From Stieleria maiorica (lineage in GTDB: Bacteria; Planctomycetota; Planctomycetia; Pirellulales; Pirellulaceae), in assembly GCF_008035925.1 (NCBI RefSeq), contig NZ_CP036264.1, forward strand, positions 2,412,443-2,476,442: a DNA stretch of 64,000 nt. The letters are read 5' to 3'. The translations under genes were made by a program, and so were the position numbers. This document shows, one piece after another, positions 4,987 through 42,986 of the stretch. How positions within the stretch are numbered: the first letter of the stretch is position 1; each line of letters starts with the position of its first letter. The notes beneath the pieces were generated by a model. It was not told the origin of the DNA, made no database searches, and saw nothing but the letters and a program-made list of their open reading frames with translations.

Positions 4987-6058
4987 AGAAGCGGTATTCG
5001 CTTTCGATCGCTTTGGCGTACGCCTCAAGAATCAGCTCGCGTGTGGCAAAGGCACTGACCAGCACCAGCAACGTGCTCTTGGGCAAGTGAAAATTGGTCA
5101 TCAACGCGTCGACGACCTGGAATCGGTAGGGCGGGCGGATGAACAGATCCGTGGTCGAGGTCCAGGCCCGCAGGTCACCCGAGAGGTCTGCGGCGGCGCT
5201 CTCGAGCACGCGGACGCTGGTCGTGCCGACGGCGACACAGCGGCCGCCGGAGGCCCTTCGCTGGACGATCAAGTCGGCGTTTTCCTCGGTGATCTGTCCC
5301 CACTCGGTGTGCATCTCGTGCTCCGACAGCGTCGCGGTGCTGATCGGACGGAACGTTCCCAGCCCGACGTGCAGCGTCACCGACGCGGTCTCGGTGCCTC
5401 CGTCGGCGATCTGACCGAGCAGACTGGGGGTGAAATGCAAACCGGCGGTCGGCGCGGCCACGCTGCCGGGCGTCTTGGCAAACACGGTTTGGTAATTGGA
5501 CACATCCGCATCGACCATGTGCCCGTCGCGAATGTACGGTGGCAGCGGCACGCGTCCGTAGCGACTGAGCCACTGATCGGCGCTGGCGGATTCTGACAAT
5601 TCGGCTTCATCGCCACCGAAGGCCAACCGATCGGCGGGGGGGCGAGGCAGCACGAGCATGTGCCCGTGTTCGGTCCGCGCGACTACTTCCAACCGCATGC
5701 CGGGCAACCCGTTGCGGTCTTCGATCGTGATGGTTTCGCCGGGAACCAGTTTTCCGCGGGTTTTGGTCAACACCTCCCAGATCCCTGTCTGGGCGTCTTC
5801 GCGCAAGAACAATCCCTGCCAGCGACCTTGGGTCCGAGTGCGGAACCCGACCATTCGCGCCGGGATGACGCGGCTGTCGTTCAGCACCAGTGTGTCTTCG
5901 CTTCGCAACAGGTCCGGCAGATCGCGCACATAGTGGTGTTCGATCTCGCCACTGCTGCGATGGACCAACATCAGCCGGGCGTCGCTGCGGGTCGCCAGCG
6001 GTTCCTGGGCGATTCGCTCACGGGGTAATTCGTAGTCATATAAATCGATTTCGCTCAT
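4955..6058 (-). CDS. queA: S-adenosylmethionine:tRNA ribosyltransferase-isomerase
   Basis: MSEIDLYDYELPRERIAQEPLATRSDARLMLV...GLHFT..LL...HVGLGTF.P...H.MH.E matches QueA throughout. I take the start at the internal Met, 45 nt downstream of the ORF-track start at 6103. Confidence 0.85.
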   Translation of the reverse strand: MSEIDLYDYELPRERIAQEPLATRSDARLMLVHRSSGEIEHHYVRDLPDLLRSEDTLVLNDSRVIPARMVGFRTRTQGRWQGLFLREDAQTGIWEVLTKTRGKLVPGETITIEDRNGLPGMRLEVVARTEHGHMLVLPRPPADRLAFGGDEAELSESASADQWLSRYGRVPLPPYIRDGHMVDADVSNYQTVFAKTPGSVAAPTAGLHFTPSLLGQIADGGTETASVTLHVGLGTFRPISTATLSEHEMHTEWGQITEENADLIVQRRASGGRCVAVGTTSVRVLESAAADLSGDLRAWTSTTDLFIRPPYRFQVVDALMTNFHLPKSTLLVLVSAFATRELILEAYAKAIESEYRFFSYGDAMLIV

Positions 6059-6170: not shown

Positions 6171-7322
6171 GTGCCGAAACAGGGAGAGAATGCCGATCGA
6201 CAGGCCGGAAGCCTTTCCCATTTTTTCCCCGTTGTGATGCCGTATTACGACCTCAACGAACTTCGCCGAGCTGCGATGGGGCGGTGGGGCGAGATTTTGA
6301 TTTCCGCGGGCATCCCGGCAGCAGTCTTGGATGGTCGGAACCATCCCTGTCCCAAGTGTGGCGGGCGTGATCGATTCGCGGCATTTGGGGATCTGCAACA
6401 GCGTGGGGCGGTCCATTGCCGCCGTTGTTTTACCCGCGGCTGTGCGATCCGCCCGGGGGATGGGATCGCCACGCTGCGCTGGTGGCTGGGGTGTTCGTTT
6501 GCCGAATCGCTGGCTTTCCTGGCCGATGTGGTGGGCGTCCGGCCGGCCGTCGGCAGCCCCCGCAACCGACCGGCTGCGACTCCATCGTCCGGGTCAGCTT
6601 CATCGTCCTGCTCGGCGGCTGCGGTCCCCATCGACCAGTCTGCCGAAGCGATTGACAAGCACACCGCCTTCGCACGCGACGCCTATCACCGCATCGATGC
6701 TGCCACGCGTCGCCGGCTGGCCGAACAACTGACGGTCTCTCAGCACGCCTTACAGAGGCTCCGGGTCGGTGTGACCGCTGATGGCAACGGTTCCACATGG
6801 CCGATGCGAAATGAACACGAGCAAGTGATCGGCGTTCGCATCAGCGGTTTACCGTGGACGCAAAAACGAAACTGCAAATGGTCCCGCCGCGGCAGCCAAA
6901 GCGGGATCTTTATCGCCCGCCCAACCACCGGACCCGGCAGCACGAGAGGAATTCCGGAGACGCTGTATGTCACCGAAGGCGCCTCGGACACCGCAGCTGC
7001 GATCACGTTGGGCTGGTGGGCAATCGGAAGGGCCAGTTGCAGCGCGTCGACCTTTTTCGTCGACCGCTACATCCACCGACACCAGCCTCAACGACTTGCG
7101 ATCGTCGCCGACAATGATGAAGCCGGACGAAGCGGGGCCAAGCGATTGGCCAAGTCACTGTGCCAAACCCTGCCACGGTCCTTGAGCCACGTCGACGTGA
7201 TCGCTCCACCCGCACCGGCAAACGATCTCCGCGTCTGGGCGGCGATGTCTCCGATCAATCTGGCCGACGCCACAACGATCGCCACGATCCGATCGAAGAC
7301 GCAGAAGACGTTTCAGTTTTGA
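6171..7322 (+). CDS. phage/plasmid-type DNA primase: primase zinc-ribbon (CxxC-x17-CxxC with PCPxCGGxDRF) + Toprim domain
   Basis: [29 protein letters not shown] matches the Prim_Zn_Ribbon motif of P4-alpha/T7-gp4-type primases. The downstream [21 protein letters not shown]...[22 protein letters not shown] is a Toprim (E...DxD) fold. No helicase or D5_N domain follows. The true start may be Met23, near 6237. Confidence 0.6.
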
Positions 7323-7328
7323 GTTTCA

Positions 7329-7390
7329 GGAGTTGGGAGTTGGGAGTTGGGAGTTGGGAGTTGGGAGTTGGGAGTTGGGAGTTGGGAGTT
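7329..7390. repeat. heptanucleotide microsatellite (GGAGTTG)x~9
   Basis: A perfect tandem 7-mer array begins 7 nt after the primase stop codon. An inverted copy, (CTCCCAA)n, lies at 63526-63552. Confidence 0.95.
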
Positions 7391-37705: not shown

Positions 37706-38263
37706 CTAATTGCCGGGCAGCTTGCGACGGTGCTTGGGGGTTTCCGAAGGCGGCAACTCGCAATCGTATTCTTCTTGATAGCGGCGTCGTTCGACCGGGC
37801 TGGCGTAATACCGCAGCCACGTCTCGGTGTCCTCGACGCACATCCATTCGAGTGCCTTGCCTGGGACATCGACCTTCTTTTCGCAACAGGGCAAGATGTC
37901 GCGATAGATGATCGTGTACAGTTCCCGGTCACAGAGGTGATCGGTGCACCGCAACACGATGTTCATGCTGTACAGTTTTTGAATCGTCTTTTTCAGCCGA
38001 TGTGCCAGTTGTGAATCTCCCAGCGCGTCGGGCGGCAGCAAGTGCAGCGGCGGGGAGAACCAATCGGAAATCGGCAGTGCCGGGGCACGCTCCCAAGCCA
38101 GCATCGACGCCAGGTATTCGTTCTCGGCCTGCAGCGACATCCGGTTGATCGACGATTCGATCGACTCATCGCGATACGGCTCCAACTCGTCCCGAAGCCT
38201 GGCATTGGCCAACATCAACTCGACTTCGTCGATCGCTTGTCGGCGGGTTTCTCGCATGTCCAT
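37706..38263 (-). CDS. hypothetical protein
   Basis: The ORF fills a gap consistent with the surrounding coding density. No motif was recognised. Confidence 0.3.
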   Translation of the reverse strand: MDMRETRRQAIDEVELMLANARLRDELEPYRDESIESSINRMSLQAENEYLASMLAWERAPALPISDWFSPPLHLLPPDALGDSQLAHRLKKTIQKLYSMNIVLRCTDHLCDRELYTIIYRDILPCCEKKVDVPGKALEWMCVEDTETWLRYYASPVERRRYQEEYDCELPPSETPKHRRKLPGN

Positions 38264-38325
38264 CTAAACCGGTTGGCTGGGGGGGGAGGCAGCTCGTACT
38301 TCGTCAACTATTAAACTTGGGGTGC

Positions 38326-38404
38326 CGCGGAAAAGGGGTCAGGTACCAAAAATGCGAAGCACCCTTCGGGCCATTTGGTTTTTGGTACCTGACCCCTTTT
38401 CCGC
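38326..38404. repeat. perfect 70-nt hairpin element (copy 1)
   Basis: GCGGAAAAGGGGTCAGGTACCAAAAATGCGAAGCACCCTTCGGGCCATTTGGTTTTTGGTACCTGACCCCTTTTCCGC has perfect ~26-bp arms. Confidence 0.9.
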
Positions 38405-38721
38405 TCGACTTACGCAAACCAAGGATTTGACGCTGACAGAGCACTAGGCTGGGGCAAAGGATCGGTTGACCGGTCGGCAAAGAGCCCGTCGGGGGCCCAG
38501 GCGGGCCGACCAAGTCGTCCAACGATGCCCTGATGGTATCTGTCGTTTGCCGCCGCTCAACTTGCAACTGAAGCAAAACCGAGGTTTCAAATCATTTTCG
38601 TCGCTCCGGCCTTGCCTTGATCGTTACGAACGGAATGCCTTATCAGGATTTGCCGTCAATTCGCCAGTCCGTGGACTTCTTCGCCCAAAGATTGACTACC
38701 ACGCTGTTCCAATTGGCCGAG

Positions 38722-38833
38722 CTAAAAGGGGTCAGGTACCAAAAATGCGCGAGCGAAAAGGGGTCAGGTACCAAAAATGCGAAGCACCCTTCGGGCCATT
38801 TGGTTTTTGGTACCTGACCCCTTTTCGCGCTCC
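38722..38833. repeat. hairpin element copy 2 plus an adjacent half-copy
   Basis: The half element AAAAGGGGTCAGGTACCAAAAATGCG (38724-38749) is immediately followed by a full hairpin (38753-38828) identical to copy 1. Confidence 0.9.
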
Positions 38834-38869
38834 CACCCGTGAACCCGTCCATCGAATTGGAACGCAGCA

Positions 38870-39985
38870 CTACCGCGCCTCGAATTGCGATCGCAGCTGG
38901 CGATAGAGTTGGGCGTGCCGCTGAACCATTTTTTCGACCGAAAACGCCTCTTCGATCCGTCGCCGGGCGGCGTTTCCCAGTCGCTCGGCCGTTTCGGGAT
39001 GGTCCAGCAAATCCAACGATTCCCGGGCGAAAGCGGCGCGATCGCCGACCGGGACCAGCCGCCCGGTTTCGTCGTGGCGGATCAAATCGCGGTTGCCGGG
39101 AATCTCCGATGCGATCACCGGCCGTCCGGCTTGCATCGCTTCGATCACCGCATTGCTCTGGCCCTCGTATTCGCTGCCGATCCAAAACAGGTCCGCGTGC
39201 GGCAGCAATTCGGGCACATCGTCACGTTGGCCGACGAAGCAAACATGTTCGGGGATCGTGACGGCATCGCGAAAACGCAGCAGTTCCGCTTTTTGCGGGC
39301 CGTCGCCGATCACGACCAGCGTGGTGTCGCCGCGGGTGCAGGCGATCAATTCGGCGGCCCAGATCAAGTCGCGATACCGTTTTTGCGGCCAAAGTCGACC
39401 GACGGCCATGATGAGCTTTCGATCGGCGGACACTCCCAGGCGCTCGAGTGCCTGCCCGCGAGTGATCGACGTCGCCGATCGCTCTGGGATTCCATTGGGG
39501 ATCACATGAAACAGATTCGGTGAGATCCCATGGTCGGCGTAAAATTCCACCACGCCTGAACTGTTGGTCGTGATCGCGGTGGAGCGGCGTGCCAAGACAC
39601 GATCGATCCAGAAGTGCCACCAGGATTTCCAGGGATCGACGCAGCGTTCACTGGCGATGATCACCGGCACCTTGGCCATCACAGCGGCGGTGCGTCCAAA
39701 ACTGTTCGCGGCGAACAACCAGGTGTGGACCACGTCCGGTGACCATTCCTTCAACAGACGACGCAAGCGAAACAGGGCGGTCGGATCGGCTTTGAACCGT
39801 TTGCCGATCACCGTGACCGGGATACCACTGTCACGCAGCGATCGGCTGCGTGGGCCGTCACGCGTCAGCAAGTAGACGTGCACCTCGAACTCGTCGTGAG
39901 GCAAGTTTTCGGCCAATAATGCGAGCTGCTTTTCGGCGCCCCCCTGATCCATCGTCGGGATGATCAGTGCGATTCGAAGTTTCAT
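38870..39985 (-). CDS. family 4 glycosyltransferase
   Basis: The N-terminal MKLRIALIIPTMDQGGAEKQL is the GT4 N-domain. The C-terminal EYEGQSNAVIEAMQAGRPVIASEIPGNRDLI is the GT4 EX7E region. Confidence 0.8.
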   Translation of the reverse strand: MKLRIALIIPTMDQGGAEKQLALLAENLPHDEFEVHVYLLTRDGPRSRSLRDSGIPVTVIGKRFKADPTALFRLRRLLKEWSPDVVHTWLFAANSFGRTAAVMAKVPVIIASERCVDPWKSWWHFWIDRVLARRSTAITTNSSGVVEFYADHGISPNLFHVIPNGIPERSATSITRGQALERLGVSADRKLIMAVGRLWPQKRYRDLIWAAELIACTRGDTTLVVIGDGPQKAELLRFRDAVTIPEHVCFVGQRDDVPELLPHADLFWIGSEYEGQSNAVIEAMQAGRPVIASEIPGNRDLIRHDETGRLVPVGDRAAFARESLDLLDHPETAERLGNAARRRIEEAFSVEKMVQRHAQLYRQLRSQFEAR

Positions 39986-42901: not shown

Positions 42902-42986
42902 GGATGGGTGGCCGAGTGGTCGAAGGCACTGGTCTTGAAAACCAGCGTAGGGCAACCTACCGTGGGTTCGAATCCCACCCCATCCG
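42902..42986 (+). tRNA. tRNA-Ser (anticodon UGA)
   Basis: The acceptor stem is GGATGGG/CCCATCC. The D-arm is GCCGAGTGGTCGAAGGC. The anticodon stem-loop is CTGGT-CTTGAAA-ACCAG, giving TGA. A long variable arm (CGTAGGGCAACCTACCG) is present. The T-arm is GTGGG-TTCGAAT-CCCAC and the discriminator is G. CCA is not encoded. Confidence 0.85.

Follow-up and report, generated by a model that had tools for sequence, protein, structure and literature searches.

Three kinds of bacterial repeat are the closest described relatives, in form, of the repeats analysed here. RUP of Streptococcus pneumoniae is an IS630/Tc1-mariner-derived bacterial MITE, and the Correia elements (CREE/NEMIS) of Neisseria are small palindromic MITEs with a TA duplication, in which the whole unit forms a long hairpin in transcripts; they often lie near gene ends and have documented effects on transcript processing or termination. 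REP/BIME and REPIN repeats, too, are extragenic, palindromic and of high copy number, and are sometimes clustered; roles in termination or in mRNA stabilisation have been suggested for them. The hairpins that we describe from a glycosyltransferase locus of Stieleria maiorica are very likely the cores of two MITE insertions, and so represent a new MITE family of a known class. The planctomycete element is like the IS630/Tc1-mariner MITEs in being about 100-150 nt long and non-coding, in its terminal inverted repeats, in insertion at TA with apparent duplication and in having many dispersed copies, most of them intergenic; it differs from them in the shortness of the shared inverted-repeat core, in that no matching autonomous IS was identified in the loci searched, and in a near-invariant perfect 23-26-bp central hairpin that is better conserved than the termini and is common to two planctomycete orders. 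With the Correia elements it has no sequence relationship, and while the Correia stem is made by 26-bp terminal repeats, the perfect stem of the planctomycete element is internal.

The hairpin cluster occupies a 606-nt spacer within the window, by which we mean the whole 64-kb stretch of S. maiorica DNA that was analysed. It lies downstream of the last gene of an hpt-GT4-GT4 run, which encodes a GT4-family glycosyltransferase (38870-39985, minus strand; Pfam PF00534 and PF13439), and upstream of ORF185, a conserved 185-aa ORF (37706-38263, minus strand) that is the downstream neighbour of GT4 and keeps this synteny in orthologues. The earlier note had reported a perfect stem of about 26 bp present in two full copies and a half copy, and this description holds. 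The central hairpin of element A, at 38327-38404, has a 26-bp perfect stem and a 26-nt loop, TGCGAAGCACCCTTCGGGCCATTTGG, with a small CCC-TTCG-GGG stem-loop inside it; the central hairpin of element B lies at 38753-38828, and the two share an exact 72-nt direct repeat (38330-38401 and 38755-38826; 100% identical), with a perfect stem of 23-26 bp across the two 72-nt units. The half copy, at 38724-38749 (plus strand), is a partial duplicate of the left arm, AAAAGGGGTCAGGTACCAAAAATGCG, consisting of the arm and the first loop bases only, and the same bases recur 32 nt further on in hairpin B. The 22-nt arm occurs five times in the window, every time within the cluster, where 0.00 occurrences are expected from 100 shuffles, and RNA folding of either strand gives -57 to -58 kcal/mol (z = -8 to -10). 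To call the arrangement tandem, as had been done, is to use the word loosely, since hairpin copies A and B are spaced 425 nt apart, with start-to-start distances of 393 nt from hairpin A to the half copy and 32 nt from the half copy to hairpin B. The dismissal of a CRISPR array was correct: such an array has at least three regularly spaced direct repeats with unique spacers of similar length, and the repeats here are long palindromes at irregular intervals.

The hairpin had also been taken as the repeat unit, which proves to be larger. In blastn comparisons of the window with the other loci, copy A is similar over about 153 nt (approximately 38293-38447) at 88-96% identity in about 35 loci, and copy B over 38755-38832 only. 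When 40 copies from the Pirellulaceae group and 51 from Fuerstiella are aligned, they define a full unit of 149-152 nt, with modal lengths of 149 nt in the former and 152 nt in the latter. This unit has no coding capacity and forms, as a whole, one imperfect palindrome; on this definition element A is 149 nt long (38296-38444) and element B extends rightwards to 38870. The parts follow in the order terminal repeat, (C)TA|GTGCTT(C/T)GTCA..., variable subterminal segment, hairpin, second subterminal segment and terminal repeat, ...TGAC(A)nAGCAC|TA(G), and the near-invariant central hairpin accounts for 72-78 nt of the whole. The terminal inverted repeats pair GTGCTT(C/T)GTCA... with ...TGAC(A/G)nAGCAC; a 17-nt terminal repeat is perfect in the Fuerstiella consensus, and the core shared among the Pirellulaceae subfamilies is shorter (8-16 nt). 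Conservation drops to background directly outside CTAG...CTAG in the aligned 40 and 51 copies. In the 53 full-length copies the left flank reads C (79%), T (75%), A (77%) and the right flank T (87%), A (79%), G (75%), with random sequence beyond on both sides, and TA stands on both sides in 23 of them. An nhmmer profile of 159 positions, built from 38 copies of other genomes with the window's own copies left out, detects element A, element B and the half copy in the 64 kb, and nothing else. Small size (below about 300 bp) without coding capacity, terminal inverted repeats, multiple dispersed copies and a target-site duplication are among the features by which a MITE is recognised; the unit has the first three and, on the evidence of one empty site, an apparent duplication.

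The family is widely dispersed in one phylum. The arm 18-mer GGGGTCAGGTACCAAAAA, scanned against one genome per species (596 Gb), matched at least 120 loci, and all of those listed except three are in Planctomycetota; the three are single arms in unrelated bacteria, and about 17 chance matches are expected for an 18-mer in 596 Gb. The Fuerstiella sp. Nau_8 MAG has at least 72 copies, many of them at contig ends, and there are at least 12 in 'Phycisphaera sp. RhM', at least 11 in S. sedimenti, at least eight in Rhodopirellula sp. SM50 and at least five in S. magnilauensis; S. mannarensis and further Fuerstiella, Pirellulaceae and Planctomycetota MAGs are the other hosts among the matches listed. 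For S. maiorica the count of two copies and one fragment covers the 64-kb window alone. The matches listed comprise 106 complete hairpins and 23 solo arms, the latter being contig-end truncations, decayed copies or chance matches, and some copies consist of the hairpin only, with no recognisable flanks. No match to the element was found in viral contigs or in plasmids. The loop is asymmetric and conserved, TGC(G/A)AAGCACCC-NNNN-GGGCC(A/G)TT(T/CC)GG, so that each copy has an orientation, and its variable positions are the four central bases only (TTCG, TGCG, TACG, GATG or GTTG), between the conserved CCC and GGG. Dozens of scattered copies had been named beforehand as the observation that would mark a generic family; they are present, in related genomes, and the hairpins are therefore ordinary members of a generic family rather than an sRNA or a protein-binding site particular to this locus. 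The REP-type element was the closest of the four candidates that the earlier note had offered; the terminal inverted repeats, the TA flanks and a demonstrable empty site nevertheless make this a MITE and not a classical REP. At loci L091 (S. magnilauensis, position ~2583) and L101 (RhM, ~7385) the same insertion lies between orthologous genes of 91-97% protein identity, and some copies are therefore older than the split of these lineages.

Element A (38296-38444, plus strand as set by the asymmetric loop) is a full-length 149-nt MITE, GTACTTCGTCAAC...GCTGACAGAGCAC, with terminal inverted repeats, and is supported by nhmmer, by blastn and by an empty site. Its nhmmer match covers 38294-38448, that is, model positions 4-158 of 159 (E = 1.4e-48). 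The empty site is found in RhM (L121) and at L122, where, in the window's minus-strand sense, the sequence is CCAGCC-TA-GCTGCC; the filled site on the S. maiorica minus strand is CCAGCC-TA-[GTGCTCTGTCAGCG...GACGAAGTAC]-GA-GCTGCC, with a 149-nt insert and with GA standing for TA with a T>G change. Given the empty site in the relatives, element A is a clean lineage-specific insertion into CTAG. On the plus strand the left target-site copy is TC, a degenerate TA, at 38294-38295, as placed by the empty-site alignment and the 53-copy flank logo, and the right copy is TA at 38445-38446, with G38447 completing the CTAG target. The TA appears to be duplicated on insertion, an element-borne terminal TA being formally possible with a single empty site. 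The hairpins belong to a multi-copy repeat family of several genera that has the anatomy of a MITE, and copy A arrived by insertion.

Element B is less regular. Its nhmmer match extends over 38755-38871 (model positions 40-155; E = 8e-32), and its right flank (38829-38870, plus strand), which ends ...GGAACGCAGCAC, is diverged yet recognisable: in local alignments tested against shuffles it resembles the right flank of the consensus (p = 0.001), whereas its left flank has no similarity to the consensus left flank (p = 1.0). We conclude that B is rearranged and that its canonical left end is gone. The half copy (nhmmer model positions 41-66, E = 3.7e-7) is, from its sequence, part of a 32-nt internal duplication on the left side of element B. 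At the other end the element meets the GT4 stop codon TAG (38870-38872, minus strand), which is composed of the flanking TA (38871-38872) and the terminal base of the element, the C at 38870 on the plus strand being the G of TAG on the minus strand. Since the element begins with G, insertion at the TA of a TAG stop rebuilds the stop codon. Hairpin B begins about 40 nt past it.

Comparison with syntenic loci separates the inserted from the ancestral DNA. The loci compared, from RhM, two metagenome assemblies, S. tagensis, Roseiconus nitratireducens and Crateriforma, share the gene order hpt-GT4-GT4-ORF183/185, followed by GT2 on the opposite strand, and the GT4-to-ORF185 spacer is 245-308 nt long in the closest relatives, where both genes are called, against 606 nt in S. 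maiorica. The roughly 320 nt between the hairpins, previously described as non-coding DNA, are in part element flank and in part an ancestral spacer conserved in relatives; this spacer (38448-38697, minus strand), outside the repeat, is delimited by the relatives' alignments and has no match to other repeat loci. Within it, upstream of ORF185, is a block of about 116 nt (38531-38646; in minus-strand sense CTGATAAGGCATTCCGTTCGTAACGATC...GACAGATACCATCAG) that is strongly conserved in five related genomes and appears better conserved than the remaining spacer; by group, the conservation is strong in Stieleria-like and Roseiconus relatives and partial in Crateriforma. RNAalifold found no convincing consensus structure for this block on either strand, so that it may be a promoter, an operator or a leader. 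ORF185 matched no Pfam or NCBIfam family; its N-terminus, M(DM)RETRRQAIDEVELMLANARLRD, is highly conserved, and its synteny is kept in six related genomes. L121 (WCIL01000009.1, 'Phycisphaera sp. RhM') shares the full Stieleria gene order, and its GT4 is 83% identical to that of the window; the Phycisphaera label of the RhM MAG is probably wrong, the genome having the look of a Stieleria-like member of the Pirellulaceae. Elsewhere, the window has one Rfam match that reaches the gathering threshold, a tRNA gene at 42902-42986 (plus strand; RF00005, 63.8 bits).

These comparisons bear directly on the idea that the hairpins evolved in place for the glycosyltransferase operon, as an sRNA gene or a pair of terminators made for the purpose. 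In its favour are the high stability of the fold and the positions of the two copies, of which one directly follows the stop codon of GT4 and the other shortly precedes the next gene; against this, the same sequence stands at more than 100 unrelated loci in other genera, the syntenic orthologous loci of five relatives have neither hairpin, and Rfam has no RNA family for the hairpins at the gathering threshold, its E-value mode returning generic miRNA-precursor hairpins only (18-38 bits, against thresholds of 53-99). We regard this origin as extremely improbable.

Insertion of a MITE, the reading that we prefer, is also reflected in where the copies lie. Of 78 interior copies 64 are intergenic, in loci of which 87% of the DNA is called coding (p = 6e-45, with a crude ORF caller). 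Their flanking genes are co-directional in 39 cases, convergent in 16 and divergent in nine, which is close to background, with a weak skew of convergent over divergent (p = 0.046). With respect to co-directional genes the loop points the same way in 22 cases and the opposite way in 17 (p = 0.52), an absence of orientation bias that tells against the family, taken as a whole, acting as a strand-specific RNA. Among 113 intact termini, 35 close an in-frame open stretch of at least 100 codons at the terminal TAG, compared with four and 12 in the control frames. We considered stop-codon targeting as a selected property and rejected it, because 27% of termini are at long-ORF stops and the supply of non-disruptive CTAG sites predicts 21% (p = 0.13); termini coincide with stop codons as a by-product of the choice of target and of the loss of disruptive insertions.

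Effects on particular genes are a separate matter. Because copy B starts at the GT4 stop codon, a terminator effect on the hpt-GT4-GT4 operon is possible, and from its placement hairpin B could plausibly act in termination or 3' stabilisation after GT4. Hairpin A has the conserved leader on one side and the start codon of ORF185 on the other, and to form a structured 5' leader or to insulate ORF185 is a plausible, if putative, function for it. A terminator role across the family finds no support in loop orientation relative to gene direction (22 versus 17). An intrinsic (Rho-independent) terminator is a GC-rich stem with a U-tract directly after it on the transcribed strand. The UUUU run at the stem base is paired with AAAA, and a terminator consensus scan flagged the 5-bp loop hairpin alone, followed by CAUUUUUGG, on the minus strand, leaving the main stem unflagged.

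The hairpin core calls for separate consideration. Between Pirellulales (Stieleria, Rhodopirellula) and Planctomycetales (Fuerstiella) it hardly differs, and in both groups conservation is much higher at the centre of the element than in the flanks; that hairpin and loop are better conserved than the element ends is the opposite of the simple expectation for a MITE moved by a DDE transposase. Constraint on the master copies could account for this, as could horizontal spread, local gene conversion or selection for some function of the hairpin. The last of these would make the hairpin-loop core a functional module carried by MITE backbones, such as a bidirectional terminator, an RNA-stabilising stem or a binding site for a protein of the host or of the element, and its near-invariance would then be due to that function and not to transposition, a reading that partly overlaps with our main explanation. 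It draws on the loop, which is outside the search pattern and is nonetheless at least 90% conserved in both the Pirellulaceae and the Fuerstiella groups, with variation confined to the inner tetraloop and the surrounding CCC and GGG kept, while the flanks are just 50-80% conserved and group-specific. Element B repeats this pattern on a small scale, its right flank being about 30% diverged from the family consensus and its 72-nt core identical to that of A, and the hairpin-only copies fit as well; moreover, once the outer A:U pairs are opened, either strand has a stem GGGGUCAGGUACC...GGUACCUGACCCC with UUUU after it. The conservation of the arms carries less weight, as it is partly an ascertainment artefact of fetching the loci by an exact arm 18-mer, and the same exact-arm retrieval biases the arm-to-arm covariation comparison. 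Single-arm substitutions are common and uncompensated in individual copies, as is usual for neutrally decaying insertions, and the unbiased loop orientation, the weakness of the convergent skew, the terminator scan that picked out the tiny loop hairpin and the lack of an Rfam family likewise speak against a functional core, which we consider unlikely. A stronger version, in which the 72-nt core is an independently selected module riding on diverged MITE backbones in the two orders, either as a recognition structure for a dedicated protein, which in view of the GGGGWSAS-like arm may be an HUH/'TIRYT'-type enzyme, or as a portable bidirectional terminator, seems to us somewhat less likely again.

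Recognition of the hairpin as single-stranded DNA by an HUH tyrosine transposase (RAYT/TIRYT, IS200/IS605-like) would instead make the family a REP/REPIN-like or 'TIRtron'-derived repeat. Rhodopirellula baltica has many tyrosine-transposase genes and associated repeats, and a GGGGWSAS motif has been reported in the inverted repeats flanking RAYT-like 'TIRYT' genes (PMC3733652). The arm of the planctomycete element contains GGGGTCAG, which fits this motif, and the hairpin is the best-conserved part of the element. The anatomy is nevertheless difficult to reconcile with such a system. The arms are not REP hairpins, that is, short imperfect palindromes with a GTAG or CGTC tag beside the stem: they are 23-26 nt long and, apart from GGTACC, not self-complementary, they contain no GTAG, and the one CGTC belongs to the terminal repeat of the Pirellulaceae copies, some 30 nt away from the stem, with TGTC in its place in Fuerstiella. 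Symmetric terminal inverted repeats and TA flanks at CTAG, which set the element apart from REP and REPIN repeats, are not a product of HUH transposition; in the loci searched we found neither an associated Y1 transposase, as RAYT systems have, nor an inverted arm pair around a gene-sized insert; and the sequence is absent from the supplementary lists of the study cited above, where the R. baltica families are GTAG-20 and GTAG-21 (PMC3733652). A tyrosine transposase is therefore an improbable agent for these repeats.

We return to a MITE moved by a DDE-type enzyme, and to its target. IS630-family elements insert at TA and duplicate it (PMC2170065), and IS630 is reported to prefer TA within CTAG (Tenzen & Ohtsubo 1991, as cited in PMC2170065), a preference that the CTAG context of the planctomycete element matches. 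Because insertion at TA within CTAG agrees with the behaviour of that family, mobilisation by an IS630/Tc1-mariner-type transposase is the agency that we favour, as a reasonably probable one judged from target and flank behaviour; its cognate enzyme would be of the HTH plus DDE_3 type and bind the terminal repeats. On this model a non-autonomous MITE, dispersed through Planctomycetota genomes, entering the TA of CTAG sites with apparent duplication of the TA and driven in trans by such a transposase, would have inserted twice at the GT4-ORF185 spacer. Element A would be the lineage-specific insertion, its end 30 nt upstream of the ORF185 start codon, and element B would have entered at the TA of the GT4 stop codon, lost its left end and gained the 32-nt internal duplication. 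An autonomous element with the same termini, whose presence in the same or a related genome is a further mark of a MITE, was not found in the window and about 0.95 Mb of loci, and no ORF is multi-copy within any genome in an all-against-all blastp of the 1713 ORFs from the same 0.95 Mb. Among pairs of terminal repeats separated by 250-4000 nt there were four candidates, of which L102 (1306 nt), the one examined in detail, is a chance pairing beside ordinary genes; a looser search for pairs with internal ORFs gave 31, and the ten ORFs that were translated look ordinary by eye (ABC ATPase, SelA-like and HflX-like proteins, for example) and not like transposases.

Several other features were seen around individual copies. 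Several Stieleria-group copies are flanked by another palindromic repeat, CCCACGGATGGCAGCGCGAACCCACGGAT and its complement, that is unrelated to the element, with sites at L045 (~2490-2540), L091 (~2450-2550) and L101 (~7250-7350). At L115 (~5510-5640; Planctomycetota MAG J06632_9) a hairpin-only copy directly precedes a sequence that, judged by eye, resembles the beginning of a tRNA gene (GGGGCTGTAGCTCAGTTGGTTAGAGC...). Two Fuerstiella copies, at L053 (~1480-1620) and L104 (~6345-6400), are truncated in or next to the hairpin GGTACC and are then followed by a shared sequence, GCGGCCACAA(A/G)(G/T)CAGCGTGAAACGCTG, with no IS-like ORF nearby; this sequence may be another small repeat. A hairpin-targeting IS was suspected at these two loci and discarded, the neighbours being ordinary genes. 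Many contigs of Fuerstiella sp. Nau_8 start or end inside the element, among them L003, L005, L022, L064, L072 and L111, and the 5.6-kb contig L111 is bounded by it at both ends, so that the family seems to be a frequent assembly breakpoint in this MAG.

In summary, the MITE class itself is ordinary, but this planctomycete family appears to be undescribed, no publication on the family or its sequence strings having been found in the literature searched. For annotation, the hairpins belong under a repeat or mobile-element label, and sRNA, terminator or CRISPR-like labels are mistaken; and because the family coincides with many contig ends in the Fuerstiella MAG, it explains part of the fragmentation of planctomycete assemblies. 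The reconstruction of a TAG stop codon by an element that begins with G and inserts at TA, as at GT4, illustrates how target choice makes insertions tolerable, and if the core were indeed a portable terminator, insertions beside stop codons would be harmless or even useful. Were a partner transposase to be found, the family could provide a native transposon tool and strain-typing markers in a phylum with few genetic tools. In S. maiorica itself, the glycosyltransferase genes are now set apart from ORF185 and its conserved leader by two hairpins of high stability, which may have altered co-transcription at this locus compared with the related species.
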